DNA of 64,000 bases, from the NCBI RefSeq assembly GCF_046533115.1, contig NZ_JAJQRC010000002.1, positions 43,708 through 107,707 on the forward strand, read 5' to 3'. A program made the translations under genes and the position numbers. Origin of the DNA: Treponema sp. TIM-1 (GTDB lineage: Bacteria > Spirochaetota > Spirochaetia > Treponematales > Breznakiellaceae). This document shows, one piece after another, positions 20,878-41,108 of the stretch; the first letter of the stretch is position 1; each line of letters opens with the position of its first letter. The notes below the pieces were generated by a model. That model saw only the letters and a program-made list of their open reading frames with translations, was not told the DNA's origin and did no database searches.

Positions 20878-20890
20878 GGGGACAGAGCTC
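20878..20890 (+). repeat. GGGGACAGAGCTC repeat copy
   Basis: Exact 13-mer. First of two tandem copies, each within about 26 bp of conserved context GCATGGGGACAGAGCTC(A/G)ACTTGG. Confidence 0.8.
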
Positions 20891-20909
20891 AACTTGGAGG
20901 AGGCTGCAT

Positions 20910-20922
20910 GGGGACAGAGCTC
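20910..20922 (+). repeat. GGGGACAGAGCTC repeat copy
   Basis: Exact 13-mer. Second tandem copy, 32 bp after the first. Confidence 0.8.
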
Positions 20923-20966
20923 GACTTGGGAACTCAGATTGGGGATAGATTGTCCATTGGCAATCA

Positions 20967-23240: not shown

Positions 23241-23269
23241 ATTAGATCACTATAAAAAGGCGATACCGC

Positions 23270-23863: not shown

Positions 23864-23917
23864 ATATACTCCCTTAGCGAAAATATTGAGTAAAAGTGGT
23901 TTGGAAACTGAAGTTCC

Positions 23918-25343: not shown

Positions 25344-25624
25344 TTTTACGATACGTATACTGAAAGTTTACCGGTTTTACACGATAATTGTCCATCCCGA
25401 CTGATAGTATTCTGTCAACATACCCTAAGCAAGGCCACAGAATATGCTCCCTTAATACAAATCAACAAATTCCACCCCCCAAACCTTGAAATTTAAAGAA
25501 ATAATTGAATAAAGTATACACAAAAAAATTCGTTTTAGCAATTAAAATAAGTTGAAATGTCATATTTTGAACCGGTAACGGTATTCCCGAAACTTCAATT
25601 TTGGGGGTGGCTAGGCGGTCCCCG

Positions 25625-26809
25625 TTAAAACCGTAGTCTGACCTTGGCGGTAACCAAACCGTTGGTTCCACTTATTTGTGGACCCAGTTCCCCCCGAAGG
25701 CCGTTTCCGGTAAAGGCATCCCGATCCAAAGGAACCCGACCGGTTAAACTGAGGGTTATCCCTTGAAAAAGGTCATGATCCAGGGTAAGGGATGGAGAAA
25801 AAGATATATCGTCCAGACTGCAAAGGACCGTAAGGTTTATCTGGGTATAATCACTAAAATGATAGAGGAAGGTACCGCAAAGGTAGTTCCGGTTTGAGAA
25901 TCCGGTTTGATTTTCAGTACTTTGCGCGGTGGACGACGCGGCCCCATTGTAAAGGTATTCAGTCAAAACATAGAAATTTCCGTTAAAAAAAGAATAGTCA
26001 AACCCGCTACTTATAGAAAGTCCGTCTATGCCGGTACGGACTTCATGGTTATATCTATAAAGCAGATCGACGATAAAGCCTAATTCCATATCCGCCTTAA
26101 GAGACAAACCGGTACGGTGGATTCCATATTCAGAAGTATCCTGAGGAGATTCAAAGCTATATAAGACCTGGATACTTGCCCGATCCCAATGTTTATCTCC
26201 GGATATTCCCATGAGAAACCCCTTGCCATGGGCGTTAAAAGGATTTTTAGGAGTAGTGGTAAAGGTGAGCAGCTTAATGGTATCTTCAGGGTAGACGGAA
26301 AGGGCTGCCCCCAGTACGGCCCGGGGGCGGGCATCAGGAAAGAGGGGATTTCGGGGATTAAGAAAATCAGACGGACTAAAAACCTGGCCAAATCCAAAAC
26401 CCAGACGCATGAGTCCCGTATCCACATCAAGATATTCGCCTTTTATCCGCATATAGAGCCGTTCTAGTTCCATGGCCGCCGCATAATTATCCCCCGTAAC
26501 AAAAGCGGAGGCAGAGAAGGGGTTTAAAGTTGCACCGGCAAAACCGGCTAGGGCGGAACTACCGGCGGCGGCAATAAGATTGAAAGCCCCATAAAAATCA
26601 GCTCTGTCCCCAATTTTTGTCTGAAACCGCAGATTTGCATACTCTTCCCAGCCGAATAAAAAGGGGGATATGTCCCCGGTACCACCCTGAAAACTCACCT
26701 TACTGTCCAAAAAGCCCGAAAGGGTAAATCCCTCTGCAAGCAGCTCTGTCCCCAAAGAGAGTAGAATCATCCCTAAAAACAAGCCGAAAATCCGGATCTT
26801 TCTTTTCAT
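25625..26809 (-). CDS. Putative outer-membrane beta-barrel protein
   Basis: Signal peptide MKRKIRIFGLFLGMILLSLGTELLA. The sequence has alternating beta-strand character and a C-terminal ...RLRF aromatic residue. It is the last gene of the ABC/LolA-like operon. Confidence 0.5.
   Translation of the reverse strand: MKRKIRIFGLFLGMILLSLGTELLAEGFTLSGFLDSKVSFQGGTGDISPFLFGWEEYANLRFQTKIGDRADFYGAFNLIAAAGSSALAGFAGATLNPFSASAFVTGDNYAAAMELERLYMRIKGEYLDVDTGLMRLGFGFGQVFSPSDFLNPRNPLFPDARPRAVLGAALSVYPEDTIKLLTFTTTPKNPFNAHGKGFLMGISGDKHWDRASIQVLYSFESPQDTSEYGIHRTGLSLKADMELGFIVDLLYRYNHEVRTGIDGLSISSGFDYSFFNGNFYVLTEYLYNGAASSTAQSTENQTGFSNRNYLCGTFLYHFSDYTQINLTVLCSLDDISFSPSLTLDHDLFQGITLSLTGRVPLDRDAFTGNGLRGELGPQISGTNGLVTAKVRLRF
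26599..26611 (-). repeat. GGGGACAGAGCTG repeat copy
   Basis: The plus strand reads CAGCTCTGTCCCC. It lies inside the OMP gene, encoding IGDRAD in frame 0. Confidence 0.7.
26741..26753 (-). repeat. GGGGACAGAGCTG repeat copy
   Basis: It lies inside the same OMP gene but in a different reading frame (LGTEL). Confidence 0.7.
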
Positions 26810-26832
26810 ACTATCATCCCTCCTTACTTTCC

Positions 26833-27579
26833 TTACCGTTCCAAATTTCTAGTGCTGAAGATCGAATTGGGGATGGGCTGATCCAGAATGATACTTTTCA
26901 GTACCAAGGTCGTTTTGCTGCCCCGGCGTAGGAGATCCCGAATCTCCGTTTCTACCGGGAAACGGCGGCCTTCGATTGTTTCGATCCTTTTCAGGTTGTA
27001 TTCTTTAAGCTTTATCCCGGACAGGGCAAAAAGTTCATAATGGATACAGTCTCCATTCTCTTTATCTATCCAAAGTTTCTGTTTCGGGTAACTTTCGGTC
27101 TTCTTTTTCGCACTTAAATCCAGGACCCAACAATCCCGGTTGTTCCAGATTTCGGACCCCGCAAGAACCGGATTATACCGGGCCGATAGTTTTTCATTCT
27201 CAATGGTATCCTCATAGGAAAGATCCGACCCCATCATACTCTCCTTAAGCATATGTCCCGAAACAAGCATCACCTCCTCGGTATCCGGGGAATACACATA
27301 GAGTCGTCCTCCCCTTTTGAGGTACTTGGTTCCCCGATCCTCAGGATTGGTAAACTCAGTAAAATTGTCGGTATTCTCCCGGGCCCAGGCCTTCATAGTC
27401 TTAACATAGCGCCGATTTTGATACTCAATGATCATCTCCCCTTCGTATTCAATGGTGGTATAAATCTCATTATCATCCACCCGCCGTAATAATTCCGCCG
27501 CAGACGGCGTCTGAGCGGACACAATGGCCGCCGCCATTAAAACAAACAAAACCGCAAATACCCTTACTTTCGTTTTCAT
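26833..27579 (-). CDS. LolA-like outer-membrane lipoprotein-sorting protein (COG2834)
   Basis: Start trimmed to MKTKVRVFAVLFVLMAAAIVSAQ with a GGAGG RBS. The conserved block FTNPEDRGTKYLKRGGRLYVYSPDTEEVMLVSGHMLKESMMGSDLSYED matches the family. Confidence 0.7.
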   Translation of the reverse strand: MKTKVRVFAVLFVLMAAAIVSAQTPSAAELLRRVDDNEIYTTIEYEGEMIIEYQNRRYVKTMKAWARENTDNFTEFTNPEDRGTKYLKRGGRLYVYSPDTEEVMLVSGHMLKESMMGSDLSYEDTIENEKLSARYNPVLAGSEIWNNRDCWVLDLSAKKKTESYPKQKLWIDKENGDCIHYELFALSGIKLKEYNLKRIETIEGRRFPVETEIRDLLRRGSKTTLVLKSIILDQPIPNSIFSTRNLER

Positions 27580-27597
27580 CGTAAACCTCCTAATAGT

Positions 27598-27676
27598 AAC
27601 TACGAACCACACTAACAAACACAAAAAGGAAAACATGCCGAACAAAAAGTTCGTGTTTTTCGTGTGGTTCGTAGTT
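27598..27676. repeat. Intergenic element with a 15-bp perfect inverted repeat (AACTACGAACCACAC / GTGTGGTTCGTAGTT) enclosing three 9-bp-spaced GTTCGTG-like units
   Basis: Units lie at 27649-55 (GTTCGTG), 27658-64 (TTTCGTG) and 27667-73 (GTTCGTA). The element sits between the FtsX permease stop and the LolA-like gene start. Confidence 0.6.
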
Positions 27677-27684
27677 GAAATTCT

Positions 27685-28974
27685 TCATCTCCGCAGCGCT
27701 TCCACCGGTTCCACGAAGGCACTTTTCAGGCTGGGGAACAGGGTGAAGAGGGACGCCACCAGTACGCCCATGAGCCAGCTTTTCAGCAGGTTGACGAAAC
27801 TGAAGGCGAAAAATATCGCGTTGGCCGCGGGCATTTCGGCGAAGGTGCTTTCCCCGGCAAGGGCGGTCCAGCGCAGGGGAAAGAACTGGCCCACGCCGGT
27901 AAAGACGCCCCCCAGGATCACCCCCGCAGTGGCCCCGGCTATAGCGAGGAACAGGGACTCGAAGAAGAAGACCCGGACGATTTCCCCACGGGTCATGCCA
28001 AGGCTCCCCATCATGCCGATTTCTTTGATCCGCTCGTGGATGATCATGGTAATCGTATTGACGATGAGGAGGCAGGCCACGATGAGGAAAACCAGGTAGA
28101 TCAGGAAATACATGGGTTCGTACATATTCATCATCACGATCCAGTACTGATCCCGCCATTCGGTGACCACGTCTTCCGGGCCGAGGATTTTTTCCATCTC
28201 CGCGGCAATGCGCCCGCTCTGTTCCGGGGAGTCCCCGTAGACGATGATCTGCTGGGAAGCGTCGTCCAGCACGAGGAGGCGCTGGAGGCGGCCAAAGTCC
28301 ACGATGATGGTCTCCCCGTCGGCCTTGGCGTAATCGAAGCGGAAGATCCCGCTGACCACCGGGGCCCACATCTTGTCGGAGAACTGGGCCGACACGGTTT
28401 TGAGGGGAATACGGTCGCCTATCCTGAGCCCCGCCTTTTCCGCAAGCCGCAGACCTATGGCGCACTCGTTACTGCCCCGCTCGGGCCAGCGGCCCTCCAC
28501 CAGACCGTCATTCCGGTTCGTCAGGTTGAAGTGATTTACCGCCGTCTCCTCCCCCATGTTCATCCCCCAGAGGGTGGCGTGTTTCACCAGACTTTCCTGC
28601 AACGTGGCGTAGGCGGAGATCCGGGGAAACACCGCCCGCACGCCGGGAATGGCCCGGATCCGTTCCGTCACCGCCGCCAAACTCTGGCCCTCCGCCACGG
28701 GGTACTGGACAGGACTGTACTCGCTTTCCGCCTCGTATTGGGCCGACACCGCCCGGACATGACCCAACTCAAAAACCTGCACCACCTCGTGCATACTCTT
28801 CAACATCCCCTCGATGAGGGACGAATAAAACACGACGAAGAACACCGCTATCCCCACCGCCGCCACGCAGAACATGGTCCGCCTGAGATTGCGAAAAATG
28901 TTCCTGAACGCGATGGTGATAAGGGCCCCCGTTCCCCCCTGCCGATAATTACCGCTCATATAAACCTCCTTCAT
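27685..28974 (-). CDS. ABC transporter permease, FtsX/LolC/MacB-like
   Basis: 429 aa. An N-terminal TM helix, a periplasmic domain and three C-terminal TM helices make up the FtsX fold. Confidence 0.7.
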   Translation of the reverse strand: MKEVYMSGNYRQGGTGALITIAFRNIFRNLRRTMFCVAAVGIAVFFVVFYSSLIEGMLKSMHEVVQVFELGHVRAVSAQYEAESEYSPVQYPVAEGQSLAAVTERIRAIPGVRAVFPRISAYATLQESLVKHATLWGMNMGEETAVNHFNLTNRNDGLVEGRWPERGSNECAIGLRLAEKAGLRIGDRIPLKTVSAQFSDKMWAPVVSGIFRFDYAKADGETIIVDFGRLQRLLVLDDASQQIIVYGDSPEQSGRIAAEMEKILGPEDVVTEWRDQYWIVMMNMYEPMYFLIYLVFLIVACLLIVNTITMIIHERIKEIGMMGSLGMTRGEIVRVFFFESLFLAIAGATAGVILGGVFTGVGQFFPLRWTALAGESTFAEMPAANAIFFAFSFVNLLKSWLMGVLVASLFTLFPSLKSAFVEPVEALRR

Positions 28975-30722
28975 TCAAACCGCAGGCTTTGCGTAATCTC
29001 CATCTTCACCGCCCGGCGGGCGGGGAGCAGGGCCATGAGAGCCGAGAGGAGCGTGGCCACGATGCCGCTGCCTATGATGGTGTCCAACTTCCAGGTACCC
29101 CGGAAGTTGCCCGCCACCCGGTAGCCCATGCTGCCCCCCATCTGTTCCATCATTTCCGAAAAGTCTATGCCGTACTTGACCATAGGGATGTTGAGGAGGC
29201 AGCCGAGGATGATGCCCAGGACGGAACCGATGAGGCCCAGAAGGGCCGCCTCTACCATGTAGGTGAAAATGAGCTGGCCGCCCGTCATGCCCAGGGCCCG
29301 CATCATGCCGATTTCCCGGGTCCGTTCCAGGATCGCCAGGAGCATGGTGTTGGAAATGCCGATGAAGGCCAGGAGGAAAAGGAGGATGGAAAATATTTTG
29401 CTTGCTCCCGATTCCATGTTCTCGTAGCCCAGGTAGTCTTTCACATAGTCCGTCCAGAAAAACACGTCCAAATCATCGGGGAGGGCGAGGCCCCGTTCCG
29501 CAAGACCTGAGTCCAGGGCGGCGCGGATGGCTGCTTTGGTTTCGATACCGCTGGTCATGTCCGCCGCGCCCAGGGTCTTGTCCCGGATCAACAGTTCGGT
29601 GATCCGGCCTTCCAGCATCATTCCCGCCTCGTCCTGCAGCACGTCCAGGGGCATATAGCCGGTGTTGTAGTTGTTGACGGGGTCCGGGGAATTTACCAGG
29701 CCCACCACTTTGGCGTCGATCACCTGGTTCACATGCCGGACCGCGCCGGAAAAATCAACCCGGAGCATGGCCGCCAGAGCCGCGTCCCGTTTTGCCGGGT
29801 CTTCCTCGATTAAAAGGTACGCGCCGGTAAGTTCGTCGTATTCGTAGGCCCCGCCCACCAGCCGCTGTTCCTCCGCGTTCAAAAGGGGCCAGAGGTCCGC
29901 GTCCCACTTGTCCGCCCGAATCGAGTCCGGGGCCATCTTGTAGTCGATGACCGTGGAGATCCGCACGTCGTTGCGGCCCGTGGTATCAACCAGATTCCAG
30001 AGCCGGTCCAGGTCCGGCCGGGGCAGGTCCCGCCTGAGAACCAGCCGGCCCCTGGCCCGCTCCGCCGCGTATTCCTCGCTTTCCCCAAACTGGACTTTTA
30101 CTTCCATAGGCGCGTAGCAGTTTCGGATAAAAGTTTCGTCCGCGGGAACAAAGCCGTCACCGACGGCGGCCCTCACCGCTTCGATCAAATCTTCCAGTTC
30201 CGCCGGTTCCGGCCGGGTAGGAACCCCCACCCGGAGTTTGTCCGCGGTCATCAGCCCCAGGGCGACGCCGAACTCGCCGTTTCGGATATACCGGCCCAAT
30301 TCAATGTAGTCCGTGTAGGCCAGGGTCCGCGCTTCCGCCGCAGGGTCCACGGCGTATACCACCAGCGGCGCGGAGCCGGTGAGGGAATAGAGGGTTCCCG
30401 AAAAGGTGTACCGGGGGGCCGCGTCGTAGCCCGCCTTGTCCAGCGCGGCGGCGCAGGCCTCCCAGCCGCCGAAGGTCTCGTAGCCGGGCAGCTCGTCCTT
30501 CTTGTCGAAGTACCCTTTGGTTTGCAGCTTCGCCGCCCCGATCTCGTAGTTGATAATGTTCCGCCGGGACTCGTTGTTCATGCCGGCGAGCCAGCTATCC
30601 ATAAAGATATAGACCGTCACGCTCACCATGATCGCCGCGCAGGTGAGGATCGTCTTCACCTTGTGCCGCGCCAGGTTCCGCAGCGCCAGCCGCTTTAATT
30701 CTATCACGCTTGAAATTGTCAT
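28971..30722 (-). CDS. ABC transporter permease, FtsX/MacB-like with a large periplasmic domain
   Basis: 583 aa with the FtsX-like topology. Translationally coupled to its neighbours. Confidence 0.7.
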   Translation of the reverse strand: MTISSVIELKRLALRNLARHKVKTILTCAAIMVSVTVYIFMDSWLAGMNNESRRNIINYEIGAAKLQTKGYFDKKDELPGYETFGGWEACAAALDKAGYDAAPRYTFSGTLYSLTGSAPLVVYAVDPAAEARTLAYTDYIELGRYIRNGEFGVALGLMTADKLRVGVPTRPEPAELEDLIEAVRAAVGDGFVPADETFIRNCYAPMEVKVQFGESEEYAAERARGRLVLRRDLPRPDLDRLWNLVDTTGRNDVRISTVIDYKMAPDSIRADKWDADLWPLLNAEEQRLVGGAYEYDELTGAYLLIEEDPAKRDAALAAMLRVDFSGAVRHVNQVIDAKVVGLVNSPDPVNNYNTGYMPLDVLQDEAGMMLEGRITELLIRDKTLGAADMTSGIETKAAIRAALDSGLAERGLALPDDLDVFFWTDYVKDYLGYENMESGASKIFSILLFLLAFIGISNTMLLAILERTREIGMMRALGMTGGQLIFTYMVEAALLGLIGSVLGIILGCLLNIPMVKYGIDFSEMMEQMGGSMGYRVAGNFRGTWKLDTIIGSGIVATLLSALMALLPARRAVKMEITQSLRFE

Positions 30723-31405
30723 TACTTCACCTCGTCGGATTCAACCTGGCCGTCCCGGATCCGGATGAGCCGGCGGGCGTGGTCCATCACCATAAGGTCA
30801 TGGGTGGAGAAGATGAAGGTGGTCCCTTCGAGTTGGTTGAGCCGCACCATGAGTTCCAGAATCTCCCGACCTATGGTGGAATCCAGGTTCGCCGTGGGTT
30901 CGTCGGCGAGGATCAGGGCGGGCCGTTTTACCAGGGCCCGGGCGATTGCCACCCGTTGCTGCTGGCCGCCGGACATCTCCTTGGGCCGCCGCCTCTCCAT
31001 ACCCTCAAGCCCCACCTGGGCCAGAACCTGCCGGACCCGGTCCCGGACTTCCCCCTTGTCCACCCCCAAAAGGGTCAGGGGAAAGCCGATATTTTCCTCC
31101 ACCGACAGAACGGGAATAAGGTTATAGGCCTGAAAGATAAAGCCGATGCTATGCCGCCTGAGCAGGGCGAGCCGCTTCTTTGAAAGCCCCGCAATATCGG
31201 TCCCGCCAACACTCATAGTCCCGCCGGTCAGGGTGTCCAGGCAGCCCGCCAGGTGGAGGAAGGTGGACTTGCCGCTCCCGGAAGGCCCGGCAATGGCGGC
31301 AAAGTCCCCGCCCTGAAATTCCAGATTCAACCCCCGCAGGGCGTGGACCGTCTGCCCGTTCAAGCCGTAATCCTTCACCAAATTTTCCGCTTTTACCACT
31401 GTCAT
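30722..31405 (-). CDS. ABC transporter ATP-binding protein (LolD/MacB family)
   Basis: Walker A GPSGSGKST, signature MSGGQQQRVAIARAL, Walker B LILADEPTANLD. Confidence 0.85.
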   Translation of the reverse strand: MTVVKAENLVKDYGLNGQTVHALRGLNLEFQGGDFAAIAGPSGSGKSTFLHLAGCLDTLTGGTMSVGGTDIAGLSKKRLALLRRHSIGFIFQAYNLIPVLSVEENIGFPLTLLGVDKGEVRDRVRQVLAQVGLEGMERRRPKEMSGGQQQRVAIARALVKRPALILADEPTANLDSTIGREILELMVRLNQLEGTTFIFSTHDLMVMDHARRLIRIRDGQVESDEVK

Positions 31406-31441
31406 AGTATGCTCCTCAAAGTTACCTGATAACCAACCATG

Positions 31442-32560
31442 TCATTGCTCCCCCTCATTTCTATCTCCTCTCTCCTCCCGCCGTAGTTCCGTCAAAGCCT
31501 CAAGGCCGAAGATGTCCTTTGCCTTGAGTTCCTCGGTAATTGAACTGGGAACCAACATCATGGAATTCCCCGCTTTGAGCCCTTCATTCAAAATCGAAAG
31601 GATCTTGAGCTTCATCGCCGGTTCGGTTTTCGCGTAAATCCGAACCGCCTCTTCCAGCTTTCTGGCAATCTCTATCTCCGCTTCCGCCAGAAGGATCCTC
31701 CCCTTCTTTTCCCGTTCCGCCTGGGCAAGCCTTGAAAGGGAATCCTGGAGATGTTCCGGAATCTGTATATCCGTAATTTCGATATGTTGTACGGTGATTC
31801 CCCATTCGGTGGTTTTTTTATCCACTTCTTCCTGAATCTGCTTTTTAATGATATCCCCTCTTTCCAGGAACGTAGTCAAATCATGGCTGCTCACCGCGTT
31901 TCTCAGGGCTGTCTTTGAGGAGAGGATCACCGCATCCTCGTAGTTCTGAACCTCCAGGACCGCTTTTTCCGGGTCCCAGACCAGCCAGAAACACAGGGCA
32001 TCCACGGTCACCGTCACCGAATCCAGGGTGAGGGTTTCTTGGGCGGAAAAATCAGTCACCCGGATTCTAAGATCCACCCGTTGGGCTATCCTATCCGCAA
32101 TGGGAATAAGTACAAAAAGCCCCGGTCCCCGGATTCGGTAAAACCTACCGAAACGCAGCACAATGGCCCGTTCCCATTCTTCCAGCCGTTGTATTGCCGG
32201 GACAAAAAGCACCGCTAGGGCCATAAAAATGAGGGACAGAGCTAACCGGGGAAAACCTATAATTCCAAAAACACCGACCAGCAGGATGTATATTTTTATC
32301 CCCGCCCCCCATCGAGGGAAGAAAATCAATAATATAAGGGTTACACAGGGCATTCCCAGAAGTATTCCTAATTCCGGTAACGAAGGCGGAGAACCGGTAA
32401 CCAATGAGCCTCCCAGGATAAAAAGCACCCCAATTCCTAAAAAGCCTATTCCCAGCGCGTTCAGGGAGAAATCCCGAAGTTTCTGCCGGGGCTGAATATT
32501 TTTAATAAGCTGTTTAACCGCAGGATTTTTATTTTTCTGGGTAGATCCATTAAACTTCAT
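31442..32560 (-). CDS. SPFH/band-7 (stomatin-like) protein with an N-terminal multi-TM region
   Basis: Start trimmed to MKFNGSTQKN, preceded by a GGAGGAG RBS. The SPFH core is VLRFGRFYRIRGPGLFVLIPIADRIAQRVDLRIRV. Confidence 0.65.
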   Translation of the reverse strand: MKFNGSTQKNKNPAVKQLIKNIQPRQKLRDFSLNALGIGFLGIGVLFILGGSLVTGSPPSLPELGILLGMPCVTLILLIFFPRWGAGIKIYILLVGVFGIIGFPRLALSLIFMALAVLFVPAIQRLEEWERAIVLRFGRFYRIRGPGLFVLIPIADRIAQRVDLRIRVTDFSAQETLTLDSVTVTVDALCFWLVWDPEKAVLEVQNYEDAVILSSKTALRNAVSSHDLTTFLERGDIIKKQIQEEVDKKTTEWGITVQHIEITDIQIPEHLQDSLSRLAQAEREKKGRILLAEAEIEIARKLEEAVRIYAKTEPAMKLKILSILNEGLKAGNSMMLVPSSITEELKAKDIFGLEALTELRREERGDRNEGEQ

Positions 32561-32579
32561 GTTACTCCTCCTATAATTC

Positions 32580-32975
32580 CTAAACAAAATAATTTTCAAT
32601 AAGCTGTTTAAGTTCCTCTTCTCCGACTCCCAAATTCTGCATCTCCTGAACAAACCGGCCGATAACTTCCTGGATCTTTCGATTCCGTTCATCCCGTTCC
32701 TGAATCGGTTTTTTATCGGAAACATAGGTCCCGCTTCCCACCTGGGTAATCAGGATCCCCCGGATCTCCAGTTCCCCATAGGCCTTTGCAATCGTGTTCG
32801 GGTTGATCCGCAATTCTATCGCCAGGGAACGAATGGTAGGTAATTTATCCCCCGGTTTTATCCGCTCCGACAGAATCGCGTATTCTATCTGCTGGATTAT
32901 CTGCCGATACACCGGTACACCCTTATCCGTGTCCAGAGAAAAATATAATTTCCTCTCTGCATTTGTACTATTCAT
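32580..32975 (-). CDS. GntR family transcriptional regulator, short YtrA-like subfamily
   Basis: 131 aa. The winged HTH is PGDKLPTIRSLAIELRINPNTIAKAYGELEIRGIL, followed by a short C-terminal tail. It is the first gene of the operon. Confidence 0.75.
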   Translation of the reverse strand: MNSTNAERKLYFSLDTDKGVPVYRQIIQQIEYAILSERIKPGDKLPTIRSLAIELRINPNTIAKAYGELEIRGILITQVGSGTYVSDKKPIQERDERNRKIQEVIGRFVQEMQNLGVGEEELKQLIENYFV

Positions 32976-33051
32976 CTAGTACAATCGTAAATGAACTAGT
33001 ACAATATGTCAATTACTTTTTTTATTTTTTATGCTATTTAGGGACAATTTA

Positions 33052-33063
33052 GGGGACAGAGCT
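33052..33063 (+). repeat. GGGGACAGAGCT repeat copy flanking the transposase (upstream side)
   Basis: Intergenic, about 90 bp upstream of the Y1 transposase ATG. It is preceded by a partial duplicate GGGACA. Confidence 0.75.
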
Positions 33064-33153
33064 TATTAGCTGGAAAAGAAGTCTAAAGTCCGCTTTTTTA
33101 AAAATTTACGATTTCCCGAAGCAATATGAATATGAGATCCATAATAAAGAGTT

Positions 33154-33654
33154 ATGAGACATCCAAGAAAACTTAAGGATAACGCCACTTATCATGTGAC
33201 GGTCCGGGCAAACCGGAGGGAGATGGTTCTTTTTTGTACGGCTATGCGGATTTTGTTCCTCAATGTGGTAAAACGGGCAAAAAAGAAATATAAATTCCAA
33301 ATAGACAATTTTTCTATCATGGGAAATCATGTTCACCTTATTATTCGGCCGGGAAAGGATGAATCCTTATCCCGTATCATGCAATGGATATTAAGTGTCT
33401 TTGCTATGGCATGGAACCGAGCCCACTTTCAGACCGGTCATGTATGGGGAGAACGATTTTTTTCCAAGATCATCAATGATTGTATCGAATTTATCAAAAC
33501 ATTTCATTACATTTCGCAAAATCCGGTAAAGGCCCAATTAGTCAAAAGTCCTGAAGAATGGGAATTTGGAGGACTCTGGCATTTTATTTCAGGGAAAAAA
33601 GAAATAATTGGGGAACCCGCATCATGGATCCAAGAGATATATCGGAATTATTGA
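33154..33654 (+). mobile_element. IS200-like Y1 (HuH) tyrosine transposase, probably a REP-associated RAYT
   Basis: 166 aa with the HuH motif GNHVHLIIRP. The downstream HFQTGHVWGERFF block fits the IS200/RAYT family. The gene is low in GC and is flanked by inverted copies of GGGGACAGAGCT at 33052 and 33681. Confidence 0.6.
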
Positions 33655-33680
33655 GAATATTCTATCCCTGGGATCGTAAA

Positions 33681-33692
33681 CAGCTCTGTCCC
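33681..33692 (-). repeat. GGGACAGAGCTG repeat copy flanking the transposase (downstream side, inverted)
   Basis: 11/12 match, 27 bp after the transposase stop. Confidence 0.65.
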
Positions 33693-33700
33693 TCTAGATA

Positions 33701-35062
33701 CTAATTTTTGAAGCTATGGAGAGGGGCAGGTATCCTGCCGCCCCGGGCGATAAAGGAGTCGCTTTTCGCCCTGTTTACCGCCATAATGGGAGTACCCCCT
33801 AAAAGGCCGCCGAATTCCGCCCATTCCCCGGCTTTTTTACCCGGCACCGGAATGACCCGTACCGCGGTGGTCTTATTGTTCACCATCCCGATGGCCATTT
33901 CATCGGCAATGATCGCCGAAATCGTTGCGGTGGAGGTATCCCCCGGAAGGGCAATCATATCCAGTCCCACCGAGCAGACCGAGGTCATAGCTTCTAATTT
34001 ATCCATGCTTATAGAACCGGCTCTCACCGCCGCGACCATACCTTCATCCTCCGAAACCGGTATGAACGCCCCGGAAAATCCTCCCACATGGGTCGAGGCC
34101 ATAACCCCCCCCTTTTTTACCATATCCGTCAGCATGGCCAGGGCCGCGGTAGTTCCGTGGGTTCCCGCCGACTCAAGGCCCATCTCTTCCAGGATCCGGG
34201 CTACCGAATCCCCTACCGCGGGGGTAGGGGCCAGGGAAAGATCCAATATTCCGAAGGGAACCCCTAACCGTTTGGCCGCTTCCATCCCTACCAGTTGACC
34301 CATACGGGTAATCTTGAAGGCCGTTTTTTTGATAATATCCGCCAGTTCATCAAAATTTGCGTCCCGATGCCTTTCCAGGGCGGCCTTCACCACCCCGGGA
34401 CCGGAAACACCCACATTAAGGCATGCCTCCCCTTCCCCGACCCCATGAAAGGCCCCGGCCATAAAGGGATTATCCTCCGGCGCGTTACAGAAAACCACTA
34501 ACTTCGCACAGGCGATCCCATCCGTGCCGGCGGTTTTTTCCGCGGCGGCCTTGATCACCTCTCCCATGCGGCGGACCGCGTCCATGTTGATACCGCTTTT
34601 CGTACTAGCCACATTTACCGACGCGCAAACCCGTTCCGTAAGGGACAGAGCTTCAGGAATCGAATCAATAAGCCGTCTGTCCCCCTGGCAAAAGCCCTTT
34701 TGTACTAGGGCAGAGAACCCCCCGACAAAGTCAATACCCAGTTCCTTGGCGACCTCATCCAGGACCACCGCATAGGGGGTATAATCTTCGTCCCCGGAAG
34801 AACCGGCAATAAGGGCCATGGGGGTAACCGAAAGACGCTTATTGATAATGGGGATACCGTATTCGACCTCTATCTGCCGGCCCGTCTGAACCAGGGATCC
34901 CGCCGTCTTAAGGAGTTTTTCCCGGATTCTCCTCCGGGTCTCCCCGCCGGACGCGGAAGCGCAATCCAGTAGGGATACCCCCAGGGTAATGGCCCGGATA
35001 TCCAGTTTGTACCGCAGGAACATATCCACGGTCTCTTTTATTTCAAATGGGGTAAATAACAT
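33701..35062 (-). CDS. UPF0210 (DUF711, PFL-like) family protein
   Basis: The N-terminus [34 protein letters not shown] is the hallmark start of UPF0210. 453 aa. Paired with the upstream ACT protein. Confidence 0.7.
34642..34652 (+). repeat. GGGACAGAGCT(T) repeat copy
   Basis: 11-mer core inside the UPF0210 gene, encoding ...EALSL... on the opposite strand. Confidence 0.55.
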
Positions 35063-35067
35063 AAGTT

Positions 35068-35337
35068 TTATATACGGTGCATGGCGCTAAAAACCTGTTC
35101 ATGCATGATGCTGATGGATACCTTCATGGTTTTTCCAATTTCATCAAGTTCTTCTTTGATCTTTTCCAGGGAAACACTGCCTTGGGAGAGGTCAACCATC
35201 ATAACCATGACAAAGTTACCCTTTAAAATGGTTTGGCTTATATCTTCTATATTGATATTCCGTTCCGCCAAAAAAGCGCTTACCCGGGCAATTATACCAA
35301 CATGATCGGTACCTACCACGGTGATAATCGCGTTCAT
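35068..35337 (-). CDS. ACT domain protein (UPF0237)
   Basis: 89 aa with [33 protein letters not shown]. Classic partner of UPF0210. Confidence 0.7.
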
Positions 35338-35347
35338 CCTATTCCCC

Positions 35348-36430
35348 CTAATCCGGTTTTATCATGTGTTCGGTAAGAAACAAATCCAGTACCGTTAAGA
35401 AAAGAATCACCACCATCGGACCCACTATAATACCATTAAACCCATAAACGCTCACCCCCCCCAGGATAGCAAAAAAAATGATCAGGGGATGCAGCTGGAT
35501 CCGGTTCTGCAAGAATATAGGACGCAGAAAATTATCCAGGGTAGAAATAAAAAATCCCGAAATAATAAGAAACAGGATTCCTTTAAGGATTTCGCCATTG
35601 AGAATACGGATAACCCCTATGGGCAGCCATACGAGACCCGCTCCAAACATGGGAATAAAAGCGCAGATCAAGGTCAAGCCGGCAAAAACCAGCGCCCCCT
35701 TGACCTGGAAAATTACAAAAACAATATAGGCCATAATAGCCTGAACCAGCGAAACCATGATGTATCCGAAGAAAAGATTCCTCGTGATATCCTTAAATTT
35801 CCCCACCAGAGCGGTAATATGCTCTTTTCTAATAGGGATAGCGTGGAGAACGAGCCGGGAGAGATAGGCGCCATCCATATAAAAGAAAAAGAGGCTAAAT
35901 ATCATCAGTACCAGCCCAAAAAGAAAGGAACCCACATCCCGGGCTAGGCTGCTGCTCATTTGTATAAGATTCTGGAGGCTTGAACTCAAATAGGCGACTA
36001 TTCTCCGCTGAATCTCATCGGCGCTGATGATGATTTGATCCGAGGTAATATCCCGGATAAATTCGGATATTTTTTCCAGCATATCCCGGATGATTCCGGG
36101 ATTATGGTTAAAGGTATCCCGTGCCAAACGGATAAGTTCCGTGATCTGTCTAAAAAACTGGGAGGCCACAAAAAAAAGCGGGATCAGGATAAGTATCACC
36201 GTTCCTAAAGAAAATATCCCCGCCCAGATGTTTTTGCATATCATCCCCTTTATGCCTGAAGTTTTAATTTTTTTTACCACCCGTTGGTGCAGGGGGCTTA
36301 AAAGTATATAGAGTAAGGTGGACCATAGAAGAACGGTAAAAAAGGGGGCAAAAAGCCGGAACACTATCACCAGTAGTATAATGAGGATCGCAACAAATAC
36401 GGAGTTTTGTACAGCCTTTGACCAACTCAT
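35348..36430 (-). CDS. AI-2E family transporter (PerM/UPF0118)
   Basis: 360 aa with 7-8 TM helices and the AI-2E-like topology. Confidence 0.6.
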   Translation of the reverse strand: MSWSKAVQNSVFVAILIILLVIVFRLFAPFFTVLLWSTLLYILLSPLHQRVVKKIKTSGIKGMICKNIWAGIFSLGTVILILIPLFFVASQFFRQITELIRLARDTFNHNPGIIRDMLEKISEFIRDITSDQIIISADEIQRRIVAYLSSSLQNLIQMSSSLARDVGSFLFGLVLMIFSLFFFYMDGAYLSRLVLHAIPIRKEHITALVGKFKDITRNLFFGYIMVSLVQAIMAYIVFVIFQVKGALVFAGLTLICAFIPMFGAGLVWLPIGVIRILNGEILKGILFLIISGFFISTLDNFLRPIFLQNRIQLHPLIIFFAILGGVSVYGFNGIIVGPMVVILFLTVLDLFLTEHMIKPD

Positions 36431-38421
36431 AATTCTAACAATATCCTTTCCGCTTCAGCCCGCCGGGAATAACCGGGGTTACGGGTCAGAAGATCCTGAA
36501 TATACCGTTTGGCTGAATCGGCGTCTCCAAGGCTAACATAGGTATTACCCAGGGCCAAGATAGCATCCCAGTTATTGGGAACCAGCCTAACCAAATCCTG
36601 GTAAATATCCCGGGCCTTGGTTAGGTCCCCGGCGCCTATATAGGCCAGGGCTAAATTTTCCCGCACCGTGGTATTATTAGGTTGAATGGTCAAGGCCCGC
36701 TCGTAGTGTTCCACACTTTGGACCCATTTTTCCTGTTTGGCGTACGCCTGCCCCATGTTGTTATTAACCTCAAAATTATTCGGTTCCACCCGATAGGCTT
36801 CACCAAGAACTTCCAATGCCTGATCCGGAAAACCTCGGGCGGTATAAAATTTTCCCAAGTTTATCCGGGGCAAGAGATACCGGGGATCCAAAGAAGCGGC
36901 TTTGGTATAGGACATAACCATATCGTCCGAATTCCCCGCCGCCTCATGGGCAAGTCCCAGGGTATAATTATATTCTTTGTTGTTCGGGCCCCTATCCGCG
37001 GCTTTTTTTGCGAATCCCACCGCTTCGGTGCTTTTGTTAAGGGCAAGCTTAACCACCGCCATGTTGTAATTGGTCCGGTCGTCGTTGGGCGCCGACTCCA
37101 GGGCTTTACCAAAGGAAATCTCTGCGGCGGCATAATCCCCGGCGGCACTCTGGACCACCCCCAATTCCCGCAGGGCGGCGAGATCCTGGGGCTCGTAACG
37201 CAGGATCTGGGTGAATGCGTCAATCGCCCCCCGGGTATCACCCTTGGCGGAAAGAATCCGGCCTATTCCCCGGTAAGCCGCGGTATAATCGGGCCGTATC
37301 GCCACTGCCTGCCGGAAAGCGGCCAGGGCATCGTCCCGCTGCCGCAGCTCATAAAGGGCAATCCCCAGGTTATACCAGGCGGGTTCAAACCGGCTATTAA
37401 GACGGGTAACCGTTTCAAAGGCCTGTCGAGCCTCGGCAATTTTGCGGGAACTGAAATAGGCCCGTCCCAGTTCATAGGAGTACACAAAATTATTGGGCTC
37501 CAATCGGACCGCTTCCCGGAATTCTTCCGCGGCGTTATCCCATTGGCTGAGATCCCGGTAAATCTTTCCCAGGGTATTGTGGGGCATAGCCTGGGAAGGG
37601 TCCTTTTCCAGGGCCTCTCGGGCATGGGATTGGGCGGCTCGAAGAGCTTCCTGCCCTTCGGGATTGTTTTTATTTCGGGAATATCCATCATAGTAGGCAT
37701 CCGCTACCTCCGCGAGCTTTTGCGCTTCAAAACGGGGCTGTCCCGGAGGTATATTGTCCAAAGCGGTATCAAAGGCTTTGATAGCGCTGTTGAAATTATT
37801 CCCCGTAACGGCGGCCTTTCCCTGAGAGATATAGTCGTTTACGAGGCGCATTCGGGCTTGTAATTCCCGGGACTGCCGGGCAAGTTCTTCCTCCTCCGCT
37901 TTGCGCCGGGCCGCTTCCGCCTCCTCATTGGCCCGTTGTTCCGCCTCCGCCACAAGCCGGGCGGCGGCTTCGGCTTCTTCCCGGGCCCGTTCCTCCCCGG
38001 CATTCCGTCGGCGTTCCGCCTCCAGCCGTTCCATGGCGGCAATTTCTTCCAGAGAAGGTCTGCCTTGGTTGGCCGCATGCTCCCGGGTCAGGGCTTCCCG
38101 CTGGGCGACCAGAATCGCATCCCGCATATTACGGGCCTCCTCGTCGAAAACGTTCTCAATCAGGAGACGGTCCAAAAGGTCCAGGGCTCGCTGATAAGCC
38201 TCCTGCTCCATATATTCCCGGGCAAGTCTGATGATGTTGTTACGAGGAACGTCGGTCCCGGTATTATTATCATCGTCCAGGGTGATATTTTTTCCTCCGT
38301 TATCTTCCCCTTCCGCCTGCCCGTTATCGTTATTAAAGAGAAAAATTGCCCCTATGGTAAGTAATATAATAACTACAACCCCCAGGGCTATCCCACCAAT
38401 GACTATGACTCTTTTATTCAT
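36427..38421 (-). CDS. Membrane-anchored TPR-repeat protein with a coiled-coil region
   Basis: TM helix, an EA-rich coiled coil, and at least 8 TPR units with W-LG-Y / A-F-A-P patterns. Confidence 0.7.
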   Translation of the reverse strand: MNKRVIVIGGIALGVVVIILLTIGAIFLFNNDNGQAEGEDNGGKNITLDDDNNTGTDVPRNNIIRLAREYMEQEAYQRALDLLDRLLIENVFDEEARNMRDAILVAQREALTREHAANQGRPSLEEIAAMERLEAERRRNAGEERAREEAEAAARLVAEAEQRANEEAEAARRKAEEEELARQSRELQARMRLVNDYISQGKAAVTGNNFNSAIKAFDTALDNIPPGQPRFEAQKLAEVADAYYDGYSRNKNNPEGQEALRAAQSHAREALEKDPSQAMPHNTLGKIYRDLSQWDNAAEEFREAVRLEPNNFVYSYELGRAYFSSRKIAEARQAFETVTRLNSRFEPAWYNLGIALYELRQRDDALAAFRQAVAIRPDYTAAYRGIGRILSAKGDTRGAIDAFTQILRYEPQDLAALRELGVVQSAAGDYAAAEISFGKALESAPNDDRTNYNMAVVKLALNKSTEAVGFAKKAADRGPNNKEYNYTLGLAHEAAGNSDDMVMSYTKAASLDPRYLLPRINLGKFYTARGFPDQALEVLGEAYRVEPNNFEVNNNMGQAYAKQEKWVQSVEHYERALTIQPNNTTVRENLALAYIGAGDLTKARDIYQDLVRLVPNNWDAILALGNTYVSLGDADSAKRYIQDLLTRNPGYSRRAEAERILLEL

Positions 38422-38430
38422 TTCGCATTC

Positions 38431-39147
38431 CTATTCCAGCTCAAACGCGTCATCATACCCCAGGACTTCCTCAGTACCGGCGGAAAGACCGGTACTTTCT
38501 TCCGTCGCTGCTTGAAGGGAAGCGGATATCTCATCCAAAAGCCGCTGTTTCCGTTCTGCCTCAGCCCGGGCCGCGGCTTCCGCCTCGATCCGGCGCCGTT
38601 CTTCGGCGGCAAATTCTTCTTTGATGGAGGCTACCAGCTGCTCAATCCGGGGCCGTTTCGCTGATCGGGGCTCCAGAGACAAGTAAAGCTCATAATCGGA
38701 GATAGCATCCTTAAGGGAACCGGCCTGAACCAGGGCATTCGCCCGGTTTAAATAGGCTGAAGCATAGGCGGGATCCGCCTCAATGGCTTGGGTATAGTAC
38801 TGTCCCGCATAATTCAGGTTACCCTTACTATAATAGAGATTACCTAGGTTAAAGGCAATCCGGGCGGTTTCATCCCCGCCCCGGGGAAGTATTTTTCGAA
38901 ATACCGCAATAGCGTCGTCCAACCGGTTAAGCTGCTGGTAACTTATACCCAGATAAAGACCGGCCCGGATATTTGCCGGATCCTCCGTCAGGGAAGTTTC
39001 CAGAAAAGGAAGGGCTTCCTGAGGCCTGTTCAGGAGAAAATATTCTTCTCCCTGGGTAAAGGCATCTTGGGCAAATCCCCGGGACAAAAACAAGCCCCAT
39101 AAAATCATACCCAGACCGAATGTTTTCTTCATCCTTATTCCCGCCAT
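38431..39147 (-). CDS. Secreted TPR-repeat protein
   Basis: Signal peptide, TPR units, and a C-terminal acidic coiled tail. Confidence 0.65.
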   Translation of the reverse strand: MAGIRMKKTFGLGMILWGLFLSRGFAQDAFTQGEEYFLLNRPQEALPFLETSLTEDPANIRAGLYLGISYQQLNRLDDAIAVFRKILPRGGDETARIAFNLGNLYYSKGNLNYAGQYYTQAIEADPAYASAYLNRANALVQAGSLKDAISDYELYLSLEPRSAKRPRIEQLVASIKEEFAAEERRRIEAEAAARAEAERKQRLLDEISASLQAATEESTGLSAGTEEVLGYDDAFELE

Positions 39148-39464
39148 GCTATTTCCACCCTGCTTTCAAGGTTTGACATGAAGGATTAAAACAATTAATC
39201 TTCATAATAATAAAGATACCATAAAAAAGCGAAAAAAGTCATGACCATGATACAAACGGTCCTCAAAAAAGTAAAATCGATAAAGCCCCCAGTGATACGG
39301 GATTATCGGGTTTTATTGGTAAATTTTCGGCAGAATTTACGACAATTTTTTCCCTTTTTTTATAAAATCAAAGGAAAAAGGTGGCTTTTTTCCATGAATT
39401 TGGGGATTTTTAAATCGAAGGCGGCTTTTTTAAAATTTAATCTTTTGAAAAGGCCTTAAAGATT

Positions 39465-40130
39465 ATGAAAATATTATGTATATCCGATCATATCGATCCC
39501 CTTGTATATTCAAACTCGATTAAAGAACGTTTTAAGGACATTGATATGGTCCTCAGTGCCGGGGATCTTCCCATGGAATATTTGGAATTTATCGTTTCAA
39601 GCCTCAACAAATCCCTGTTTTTTGTGTTTGGAAATCATAACCTTAACGAATTGTACCGGTATAAAACCTCCGGTATGATCGGTTATCGTAATTGGATAAG
39701 TGAGGATGCGACTTATGGGTCGGGGGCCGTTCATATCGGTTCCAAAGCAAGAATGGAGGAAGGACTTATTATAGCCGGACTGGGAGGTTCCCGGCGGTAT
39801 AACCGGGGGGAAAATCAGTATACCGAATTCCAGATGAACTTCGAAATTATAAAACTCATTCCTATCCTGATCATCAACCGGATCTTCCGGGGAAGATTTC
39901 TGGATATACTCCTGACCCATGCCGCTCCCCGGGGTATCCATGATAAGGAGGATCCCTGTCATCGGGGCTTCAAAGCTTTTTTATGGTTCATGCGGGTCTT
40001 TAAACCTAAATATCTCATCCATGGTCATATTCATCTCTATGATTTATCGGATCTCAGAACCACCCGGTATAAGGATACCCTGGTGGTAAATGCCTTTAGT
40101 CATTACATAATCGAAATCGGGGAAAAATAA
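39465..40130 (+). CDS. Metallophosphoesterase (calcineurin-like)
   Basis: Motifs ISDHID, GDLP, GNHN and HAAPRG...GHIH. Confidence 0.7.
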   Translation: MKILCISDHIDPLVYSNSIKERFKDIDMVLSAGDLPMEYLEFIVSSLNKSLFFVFGNHNLNELYRYKTSGMIGYRNWISEDATYGSGAVHIGSKARMEEGLIIAGLGGSRRYNRGENQYTEFQMNFEIIKLIPILIINRIFRGRFLDILLTHAAPRGIHDKEDPCHRGFKAFLWFMRVFKPKYLIHGHIHLYDLSDLRTTRYKDTLVVNAFSHYIIEIGEK

Positions 40131-40131
40131 T

Positions 40132-41055
40132 ATGAAAAATATGTTTACCATACAAGCTACGGAAGATTTTTCAAAGGCCCGGGGTCGGGCCATACTCTCC
40201 CGGATTCAGCATTTTATGAATACCGATAAGGATAAACTCCTCTCTTTTAATGATGTAAAGGAAATCCTCAAACCCAAAAACCAAACCTATAAGGGGATGC
40301 AGACGGTCCCCATTAACCTTATCGTGGGCAGCGAAGGCCGGTATCGGGACTTTAATAAATATTTTCTGCCAAAATCGGATCACCTCAAATCCCGCTGGGT
40401 CCGGGTTGATGAAGCCCATATCAGAAGTATTGTCTTGCCCCCCATTCAACTTTATGAAATTGGGGGAGTCTATTTTGTCCGGGACGGGAATCACCGGGTT
40501 TCGGTGGCCAGAAGTCAGGGAGTTGAGATGATCGATGCGGAAGTAATCAGCCTTTCCAGTGAAATAGCCATCGATCCATCCATGACCACCGACGATCTCC
40601 GGGATCTGATCATCGGCCTTGAAAAAAAGGCGTTTTATGAAAAAACCGAATTTGGAAAATATACCAATTGCTATGATTTGGATTTCAGTATGCCCGGGCG
40701 TTACGATGTGATATATAACCATATTTTGGTCCATAAATATTATCTTAACCAGGGGATTCCCAAGGAAATCCCCTTTTCCGATGCCCTGATCTCCTGGTAT
40801 AACCATGTATACGAGCCTATTATCAAAATAATCAAGGATGAACGGCTTTATCTTAATTTTCCTGGCAGAACCCCGGGGGATCTTTATGTCTGGATCGTCA
40901 AACATTGGGATTTTTTGAAAAAAAAATACGGTATCTATTATTCCATTCCCGATGCGGCCAGGGATTTTTCTCAAAAGTACGGAAAAAACAGGGTCAAATT
41001 CCTCCAATTTATGACCGCCCTGTTCCACAAGCTGATATACCGGTCGCCGTCATAA
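40132..41055 (+). CDS. ParB/Srx-like nuclease-domain protein
   Basis: The ParB-type motif is YFVRDGNHRVSVAR. No HTH recognized. The C-terminal domain is unassigned. Translationally coupled to the upstream phosphoesterase. Confidence 0.45.
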   Translation: MKNMFTIQATEDFSKARGRAILSRIQHFMNTDKDKLLSFNDVKEILKPKNQTYKGMQTVPINLIVGSEGRYRDFNKYFLPKSDHLKSRWVRVDEAHIRSIVLPPIQLYEIGGVYFVRDGNHRVSVARSQGVEMIDAEVISLSSEIAIDPSMTTDDLRDLIIGLEKKAFYEKTEFGKYTNCYDLDFSMPGRYDVIYNHILVHKYYLNQGIPKEIPFSDALISWYNHVYEPIIKIIKDERLYLNFPGRTPGDLYVWIVKHWDFLKKKYGIYYSIPDAARDFSQKYGKNRVKFLQFMTALFHKLIYRSPS

Positions 41056-41108
41056 GGGCGCCCGGTATACCTGCGGGTGGTTTTAAAACAGAACAAGGAA
41101 GATAAGCG

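Follow-up and report, generated by a model that had tools for sequence, protein, structure and literature searches.

A REP-associated tyrosine transposase gene of Treponema sp. TIM-1 and the linear 12-mer associated with it

What the REP-associated tyrosine transposases (RAYTs) do in the cell, and how the repeats linked to them spread, has been an open question since these enzymes were described. A 64,000-nucleotide stretch of Treponema sp. TIM-1 (contig NZ_JAJQRC010000002.1, positions 43,708 to 107,707; hereafter the window) raises this question in a specific form: a 166-amino-acid open reading frame (ORF) of low GC content is flanked there by inverted copies of an abundant short word. An earlier note on this DNA took the ORF for a Y1 (HuH) transposase and the arrangement for a candidate pair of a RAYT and its repetitive extragenic palindromes (REPs), with the gene as source and mobiliser of a genome-wide repeat family. 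Is this such a pair? We found that interpretation partly supported: the enzyme is a RAYT and the word is tied to its gene family, but the word does not have the form, placement or turnover of a REP. We consider it probable that the locus holds a RAYT with a cognate linear 12-mer site of the 'TIRYT' GGGGWSAS type that acts locally; the observation is robust, and the mechanism is weak.

The RAYT gene and the 12-mer upstream of it

The ORF encodes an intact class-2 Y1 HuH enzyme of the RAYT (TnpA_REP) kind. Both motifs named in the earlier note are present, the HuH motif HVHLII (H59-V-H61) and the IS200/RAYT-like C-terminal block, which reads FHYISQNPV. Pfam identified one domain only, Y1_Tnp (E = 5e-15, residues 10-122), and the NCBIfam model for RAYTs (NF047646, REP_Tyr_transpos) scored 92.9 bits against a cut-off of 80, whereas the IS200 model (NF033573, transpos_IS200) remained at 32.4 bits, under its cut-off of 55. 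The sole match in a sequence search of the Protein Data Bank (PDB) was Escherichia coli TnpA_REP (YafM; 4ER8; E = 5e-10). The same structure was the best PDB fold match of the AlphaFold2 model (pLDDT 87.9; TM 0.74/0.75, E = 6e-8), followed by the IS200/IS608/ISDra2 transposases at a TM of about 0.5-0.68. In the alignment with 4ER8, the NHVH of the ORF corresponds to EHMH and its YISQNP (Y119-I-S-Q-N123-P124) to YIYINP. The catalytic tyrosine is Y119, in a Y-x-x-x-N-P motif that is the signature of class 2 TnpA_Y1 proteins (PMC6006769). Among 26 aligned homologues, N58, H59, H61, N123 and P124 were invariant and Y119 was at least 90% conserved; the combination of NHVH, W-G and YISQNP fits exactly with no row of the subclass table of PMC6006769.

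The ORF has a GC content of 39.3%, against 52.4% in the rest of the window, and lies between a GntR-family regulator gene and a DUF711 gene. No tnpB was found beside it in the ORF list or among the Pfam domains of the neighbours, and the 120 homologues listed contained no second TIM-1 protein. The NCBI protein, 100% identical, is named 'REP-associated tyrosine transposase [Treponema sp. TIM-1]', by which the window belongs to a treponeme of the termite-gut type. As an annotation the gene is unremarkable and can be found in the databases, which is not true of the repeat or of the way it behaves.

The repeat has the 12-mer consensus RGGGACAGAGCT, with GGGGACAG as its head. The 11-mer GGGACAGAGCT occurs in 14 exact copies in the window, where 0.03 are expected from dinucleotide-preserving shuffles (0 of 100 shuffles reached 14), and a purine stands directly 5' of the 11-mer in all of them. 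Matches to the 12-mer with two mismatches were at chance (6 against 5.4 expected of any kind). Two copies flank the RAYT, one in plus orientation about 90 bp upstream and one inverted 27 bp downstream (Table 1), and on the position, orientation and abundance of the repeat the earlier note was right.

A one-genome-per-species scan gave 312 relatives, and we fetched the best 80 of the 312 loci (L001-L080). These are nearly all from Spirochaetota, and the 11-mer is strongly over-represented in most, at flank GC contents from 40 to 70%. Of 79 homologous loci, 73 have a sense-strand GGGACAG head in the 200 bp before the start codon, against a background of 7% (p about 3e-76), which ties the repeat to the gene family. 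Almost every family member has one or more sense copies 40-130 bp upstream of the start codon, and two to five direct copies or partial heads are common in this stretch, with partial heads preceding the full copy in L012, L016, L046, L050 and L071. Within the 200 bp upstream of the RAYT starts, 127 copies were in sense and 13 in antisense orientation. The density was 5.0 copies/kb in the 250 bp upstream, 0.19/kb in the 250 bp downstream and about 0.4/kb elsewhere.

The downstream side gave a different result, with an inverted head within 200 bp past the stop codon in 4 of 73 loci, against 5.2 expected. The closest relative, L001, has DNA about 90% identical to that of the window, the same gene order and the same inverted flanking pair. 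Because the downstream inverted copy is at background among the relatives, this pair is lineage-specific and not the architecture of the family: the flanking arrangement described in the earlier note holds in the window and in L001, but not as a family trait.

The head GGGACAG was universal among the relatives; of the four-base endings, AGCT is the usual one, and some clades have TGCT, ACCT/ACCC, TCCT or AGTA/AGCA instead. Upstream and dispersed copies, the latter defined as lying more than 250 bp from the gene, carried matching variants in 32 of 42 genomes. The copy upstream of the RAYT ends in AGTA in Breznakiella homolactica, in ACCT in GL140_5_127 and in TGCT in Trep_08f406a1, and the nearby copies with the same ending number 8, 8 and 4, respectively. 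In the LacPavin genome, two AGCT-type RAYT loci hold AGCT copies only and two TGCT-type loci TGCT copies only.

The clade is spread across Spirochaetota with 1-5 divergent loci per genome among the relatives. Paralogues fall in deep clades shared between genomes, and their identity within a genome is at most 91% (median 63%), with no near-identical copies. The RAYT adjoins aspS, the gene for aspartyl-tRNA synthetase, in divergent orientation in both T. primitia (L243 8031-10531) and B. homolactica (L242 1-1924), and four further loci (L020, L029, L031 and L044) have their upstream gene in common. The adjacency to aspS, the shared upstream gene and the divergence of the paralogues together argue for vertical inheritance. 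The GC content of the RAYT was below that of its surroundings in 80 of 81 loci, by a mean of 9.4 points and with syntenic copies included; since the deficit is family-wide and affects vertically inherited copies too, low GC in TIM-1 is no sign of recent transfer. No empty site delimiting an inserted RAYT was found in the relatives located through the M28 peptidase (L081, L083, L084 and L238-L241), which break the gene order differently at DUF711. Downstream of the RAYT, T. primitia and B. homolactica both have an OmpA-family gene, with three genes intervening in Breznakiella.

Form, placement and turnover of the dispersed copies

A profile of 470 copies from the window and the related loci, extended by 30 nt on either side, confined the conservation to R+GGGACAGAGCT with a weak C-G-A preference 3' of the 12-mer; it contained no partner arm and no longer repeat unit. 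Folding of both strands at the two copies flanking the RAYT was no better than that of shuffles (z = -0.25 to +1.0), and neither a GTAG nor a CGTC tag stands at the end of the motif. None of the six frames of the 11-mer contains a stop codon. Among 387 dispersed copies in 1.18 Mb of related loci, 296 (76%) were inside ORFs and all six frames were used; because the coding fraction was 89%, the intergenic excess is only about two-fold. The window follows the same pattern, with 12 of its 14 copies in long ORFs, where they occupy either strand and every phase, and the two beside the RAYT as the sole intergenic ones. The Cys-coding frame (Leu-Cys-Pro) was the least used by intragenic copies, and the Pfam domains CYTH, DUF711 and Phos_pyr_kin span copies in the window. 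No strand bias was found, either with respect to the direction of the genes (154 copies on the same strand, 142 on the opposite one) or within loci.

Neighbouring copies at most 60 bp apart formed 87 direct and 9 inverted pairs. A linear 12-mer with no conserved flank or hairpin, mostly intragenic and rarely in close inverted pairs, is not a REP, and on this point the earlier note is contradicted. A mobile unit made of spacer and motif was also considered and rejected, as the spacers of 103 close direct pairs share merely incidental 8-mers across loci. The period of 50 of these 103 pairs was a multiple of 3, against one third expected, an excess that suggests many short arrays in frame within coding sequence. 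Longer arrays were seen as well: in T. primitia, six 12-mer copies lie on a 21-bp register (gaps of 21 or 42 bp) between annotated genes (L243 2411-2568), and a termite-gut metagenome contig has eight 19-bp tandem 12-mer units, one of them with a single mismatch (L134 337-480).

The exact 11-12-mer is about 1000-fold above chance, and for each exact copy there are about 0.4 with one mismatch. At loci of the AGCT variant we counted 449 exact copies and 191 with one mismatch, mostly at position 11 or at the variant positions, and copies with two mismatches were near the number expected by chance (262 against 244). A metagenome scan with a 14-mer gave, among the matches listed, at least two copies in 13 of 120 loci, and most of the matches listed were chance singletons from unrelated habitats. 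Viral contigs gave 33 matches to the 14-mer, all single copies and without signal.

All copies in the window form one cloud around the RAYT, and the 11-mer has no copy in the remaining 42.5 kb. This clustering has a p value of 2e-5 if the copies are taken as 14 points and of 0.003 if they are taken as 8 independent clusters. In the complete genome of B. homolactica, 17 copies of its own variant lie between -8.8 and +5.5 kb of the RAYT, with none in the next 13.8 kb (a 10-kb further walk on one side). The complete genome of T. primitia ZAS-2 has 17 AGCT copies between -7.6 and +1.1 kb of the RAYT and none from +1.1 to +10 kb, the edges of its cloud falling within the 10-kb flanks. In 50 full-length flanks the density decreased from 0.56 copies/kb at 0.25-5 kb to 0.39/kb at 5-10 kb (p = 0.02), and 2 copies were present in 135 kb from seven loci of related termite treponemes that lack a RAYT and were selected by way of the M28 peptidase.

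We compared orthologous sites between genomes. L001 has all seven window copies of the overlapping region and an extra copy in an ABC ATPase gene, where it reads GTG-AGG-GAC-AGA-GCT-CGG and the window GTC-CGG-GAC-CGG-GTC-CGG; the two versions are of equal length and differ by mostly synonymous changes, with one Val to Ala. In place of the copy within DUF711, the orthologues in L081 and L083 have GGGACAGCGCC, without an indel. Across genomes, the motif was present in both members at 124 sites and differed at 37, and at about 30 of the 37 the difference is an equal-length substitution that does not extend past the motif; a single clean indel, of 14 nt, was found (L024 against L019). Copies were much better preserved than the sequence on either side of them. 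Where the flanks were 80-90% identical, the motif was intact in 48 of 58 orthologous comparisons, against 11-20% expected under neutrality, and sites that were not intact carried either one mismatch or three to six. In an ABC ATPase gene, two genomes have CGA-GCT-CTG-TCC (Arg-Ala-Leu-Ser) and a third CGC-GCC-CTG-GCC, with flanks about 93% identical. As the version of the third genome uses more GC-rich codons, we read the sequences of the other two as a motif held against GC-rich codon preference.

The main exception to replacement at equal length is the pair in the M28 peptidase gene (42151/42197), the only hairpin-capable, REPIN-like pair in the window: the protein loop around it exceeds that of 80%-identical orthologues by 11-12 aa, and its spacer varies in length. 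Occasional insertion is thus possible. Judged by the aligned sites, copies come and go by clustered substitutions and almost never by indels. With the differing sites being substitutions and the copies concentrated near the RAYT, the proposal that the gene is the source and mobiliser of a genome-wide family is not borne out.

Readings of the link between gene and word

A RAYT with a cognate linear site that acts locally, the reading that we consider probable, brings these observations together. E. coli TnpA_REP nicks and rejoins DNA beside REPs. By analogy, the spirochaete enzyme may cut and rejoin beside the 12-mer, which it would recognise probably as single-stranded DNA. The local clustering sets the word apart from REPs, uptake sequences and Chi. 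It suggests action close to the gene, and the enzyme would then work mainly in the neighbourhood of its own gene, the upstream copies being an anchoring or loading site or a self-regulating one. Two routes to the exact sites may be envisaged: selection for a local multi-site complex, as for parS around parB, or a process, stimulated by the enzyme, in which near-matches are rewritten by short-patch conversion or template switching. An intact motif would impose non-preferred codons and some amino-acid changes, and a broken site would drift quickly back. A tension of such forces may lie behind the all-or-none pattern, which is what drift after breakage would produce, and the example of CGA-GCT-CTG-TCC and CGC-GCC-CTG-GCC fits it. 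The more specific proposal, that a domesticated HuH enzyme maintains a 10-20 kb field of exact 12-base words substituted into neighbouring coding sequence, by cis conversion or as a selected parS-like element, is tentative, and we regard it as possible rather than likely.

Several points weigh against the local reading or its more specific form. We know of no HuH chemistry that directly gives same-length replacement. The seeding of BLAST on the 11-mer inflates the conservation of the motif where flank identity is below 80%. Most loci come from metagenome-assembled genomes, in which ORFs were called crudely as the longest ones. The cloud was followed past 10 kb in the window and in B. homolactica only, in the latter on one side, and the RAYT-free loci are contigs whose genomes may or may not have the system. 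Upstream and dispersed variants disagree in 10 of 42 genomes, and AGCT copies occur at 0.15-0.6/kb around RAYTs whose upstream copy is TGCT or ACCC. Such mismatches could weaken the idea of one enzyme for one variant as well as strict locality; they may also reflect paralogues outside our sample, since only the best 80 of 312 loci were seen. A strict rule of one paralogue and one variant, found only locally, is true in the LacPavin genome and fails in several others, and we rejected it.

The locus matters because it is a clean case: a single invariant 12-mer with about 15 sites per gene, not hundreds, at a fixed position to the gene, whose last-four-base variants could be swapped by experiment and for which the hosts T. 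primitia and B. homolactica are in culture. Should the pattern prove local and insertion-free across whole genomes, it would mean that transposition is not required for a RAYT-associated repeat family to exist, and that such repeats can shape the coding sequence of their neighbours against codon preference. Cis short-patch conversion, if true, would add a new mode by which repeat families propagate, and either form of the proposal would give RAYTs a concrete and testable cellular role. In the literature, of which our coverage is incomplete, we found no description of the spirochaete 12-mer or of its intragenic location, origin by substitution or clustering, no bacterial match to the motif string and nothing on Treponema RAYTs; the term 'TIRYT' occurred in just two papers of relevance.

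Alternatively, the 12-mer could be a signal of the host genome, a word like the DNA uptake sequences (DUS) or the site of some other protein, and the RAYT genes would merely carry it upstream. The word would then build up through mutation together with a drive or selection. We consider this unlikely, although much in the word resembles such signals: its about 1000-fold excess over chance with a one-mismatch/exact ratio of about 0.4, its use of both orientations and all frames with the Cys-coding frame least used, its origin by substitution within coding sequence and its lineage variants. The parS sites of the parB system and the DUS and uptake signal sequences (USS) are likewise exact short words that are found in genes, originate by substitution and are kept in spite of codon preference. 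In addition, parS sites cluster around the gene of their binding protein, over a few tens of kb, and are conserved across phyla, and DUS have lineage variants. The analogy ends at the partner, which here would be a single-strand DNA nuclease/ligase and not ParB or a pilin, and at the several paralogous RAYT systems per genome. A host signal would also leave unexplained the 12-fold excess confined to the 250 bp upstream of RAYTs, with its sense bias of 127 to 13, and the clustering within about 10-20 kb of RAYTs, with none in the adjacent 14-42 kb. The same is true of the near absence of the word from the 135 kb of RAYT-free loci, and of the LacPavin loci that hold only the variant matching their RAYT type.

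The inverted copies on either side of the gene suggest another explanation, a mobile 'TIRtron' in which the RAYT and its 11-bp terminal inverted repeats were inserted between the genes for the GntR-family regulator and DUF711. Di Nocera et al. (2013) described RAYT-like 'TIRYT' genes flanked by inverted repeats that share GGGGWSAS and are not REPs, some of these repeats being moderately abundant families found in dimers or clusters (PMC3733652). Most TIRYTs were placed by Quentin et al. (2018) in subclass 2.1, whose members have about 238 aa and a C-terminal helix-turn-helix (PMC6006769); no REP-like sequences were found beside genes of this subclass (PMC6006769). The TIM-1 locus resembles these in being a RAYT-like gene without REP hairpins, in the fit of GGGGACAG to the GGGGWSAS core of the TIRYT flanks (PMC3733652), and in the two copies at -90 and +27 bp, which form an 11-bp terminal inverted repeat. 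The location of the gene, common to L001 only with L081, L083 and L238 having other genes beside DUF711, and its GC content 13 points under the surroundings would also suit an insertion. However, there is no empty site, the gene order at the 3' end of DUF711 being broken differently in each relative; low GC is family-wide (80 of 81 loci); and no within-genome paralogues exceed 91% identity. Because 69 of 73 relatives are without a downstream inverted copy, which is at background frequency across the family, 'terminal inverted repeat' does not describe the family. The protein, unlike those of subclass 2.1, has 166 aa and no extra domain detected by Pfam, and an intragenic location, an origin by substitution and a local cloud are not described for TIRYTs (PMC3733652, PMC6006769). 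We regard a mobile element of this type as quite unlikely.

A clear TIRYT-type arrangement with a different GGGGWSAS word is present in a metagenome contig (L090 2530-3150) and shows the wider GGGGWSAS theme. Its RAYT-like gene, 34% identical to a member of our family, has the tandem palindromes GGGGTCAGACCCC / GGGGTCTGACCCC on both sides, with two tandem copies per side and GGGGACAGAGCTCG just before the downstream pair.

The classical REPtron, in which a single RAYT and its inverted REPs mobilise REPINs genome-wide by cut-and-paste or copy-and-paste, appears very unlikely. The gene is a RAYT, with the fold, HuH motif and Y-x-x-x-N-P of E. coli YafM (4ER8). Among its relatives, a low copy number, divergent paralogues and vertical inheritance are seen as in RAYT/REP systems, and a short repeat is physically tied to the gene, with variants that track the enzyme lineages in several genomes. 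In addition, inverted copies flank it in the window and in L001, the pair at 42151/42197 folds (z = -5.2) within the lengthened M28 loop, and one 14-nt indel separates L024 from L019. Against this, the spirochaete repeat is a non-palindromic 12-mer without conserved flank, partner sequence, hairpin (z = -0.25 to +1.0 at the copies flanking the RAYT) or GTAG or CGTC tag. Its dispersed copies are mostly in genes (76%), its close pairs are direct (87, with 9 inverted), and its association with the gene is one-sided, upstream on the sense strand, the downstream inverted copy being no more frequent than expected (4 of 73, against 5.2). Presence and absence differ by equal-length substitutions nearly throughout, and the spacers between neighbouring copies are unrelated across loci. 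Finally, the copies cluster within about 10-20 kb of the gene in the stretches covered around RAYTs of three isolate genomes, and one 11-mer is kept across genomes of 40 to 70% GC.

An ordinary multi-copy IS200/IS605 element with its own subterminal hairpins, the outcome by which the earlier note would have been refuted, has almost nothing to commend it beyond the Pfam match to Y1_Tnp, the Y1 HuH fold shared with the TnpA of IS608 and ISDra2 (IS200/IS608/ISDra2 being the next-best folds, TM about 0.5-0.68) and a target directly 5' of the left end of such elements that resembles the sense motif 5' of the RAYT; it is contradicted by the sub-cut-off IS200 score (32.4 bits against 55), a tyrosine motif of Y-x-x-x-N-P and not Y-x-x-x-Q (classes in PMC6006769), flanks free of hairpins, the lack of an adjoining tnpB and the absence of near-identical copies within genomes.

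The locus and its neighbouring genes

The coordinates of the RAYT, of the copies in the window and of the conserved upstream block are given in Table 1.

Table 1. Features of the RAYT locus and copies of the repeat in the window (positions from the first nucleotide of the window)
Feature	Position	Strand	Remark
Upstream cognate 12-mer GGGGACAGAGCT	33052..33063	+	90 bp before ATG; sense strand; family-conserved feature
Head-only partial copy GGGACA	33041..33046	+	5 bp before full 12-mer; read from sequence
Conserved block between motif and ATG	33119..33147	+	AAGCA about 33 nt upstream; TATAAT-like CATAAT 8 nt before ATG
RAYT / TnpA_REP gene	33154..33654	+	166 aa + stop, ATG start; HuH H59-V-H61, catalytic tyrosine Y119 in YISQNP
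Downstream inverted copy CAGCTCTGTCCC (GGGACAGAGCTG on minus strand)	33681..33692	-	27 bp after stop; common to L001, not family-wide
Copy in FemAB-family ORF	20721..20731	+	
Two direct copies 32 bp apart (20879, 20911), 5' end of FemAB-family ORF	20879..20921	+	
Copy in C-terminal tail of methionyl-tRNA synthetase ORF	21027..21037	-	
Copy in CYTH domain gene	23721..23731	+	
Copy in 394-aa ORF	26600..26610	-	
Second copy in 394-aa ORF	26742..26752	-	
Copy in membrane segment of Band 7/SPFH gene	32233..32243	+	peptide ALSL; common to L001
Copy in DUF711 domain	34642..34652	+	peptide EALSL
Copy in Phos_pyr_kin-family kinase gene	41256..41266	+	
Inverted pair in M28 peptidase gene, length-variable loop	42151..42207	42151 +, 42197 -	hairpin z = -5.2
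Cloud extent, all 14 copies	20721..42207		21.5 kb, -12.4 to +9 kb of RAYT

Between the upstream motif and the start codon, the 79 loci have conserved positions at a constant distance from the ATG. These are A-A at -34/-33, followed by C at -31, then C-G-T-A from -12 to -9 and, next to the ATG, G-[C/T]. A Shine-Dalgarno sequence is absent from the 60 nt upstream of the RAYT ATG in the window and in L001-L080, and the blocks at -34 and -9 are possibly the promoter of a leaderless mRNA, although about 21 nt between them is a wide spacing for sigma-70.

The M28 peptidase ORF is identical to NCBI's annotated protein. The inverted copies in it encode EGQS and SSVP at the edges of a loop (residues about 55-80; 42130-42215). 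Among orthologues this loop varies in length by as much as about 20 aa, and P0125 keeps both edges with a spacer longer by 10 aa. The 287-aa Phos_pyr_kin-family gene (41109-41972) has ORFs of 70-82 aa at the same place in L081 (9777-9989) and L083 (7847-8086), and the full-length kinase is located elsewhere in L238 and L239.

A search of Rfam gave nothing above threshold near the locus. A sub-threshold Hammerhead_II match on the minus strand (30236-30287; 25.9 bits against a gathering score of 37, E = 0.06) lies inside a long ORF beside an ABC ATPase gene and is most likely due to chance.

In the spacer between the regulator gene and the RAYT (32964-33005), CTAGTACAAT occurs at 32976-32985 and again, 20 bp on, at 32996-33005. 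The spacer also has an inverted TTGTACT...AGTACAA, and L001 is identical in all of these. These elements overlap a promoter-like site, TTGACA-17-TACGAT, of the divergent GntR-family regulator gene and are probably the operator of that gene. The longest ORF of the Band 7/SPFH gene (31442-32975) overlaps the regulator ORF by 146 bp, and its true start is therefore probably further downstream. Together with the Band 7 gene and the following ABC transporter genes, the regulator gene resembles an operon of the YtrA type.

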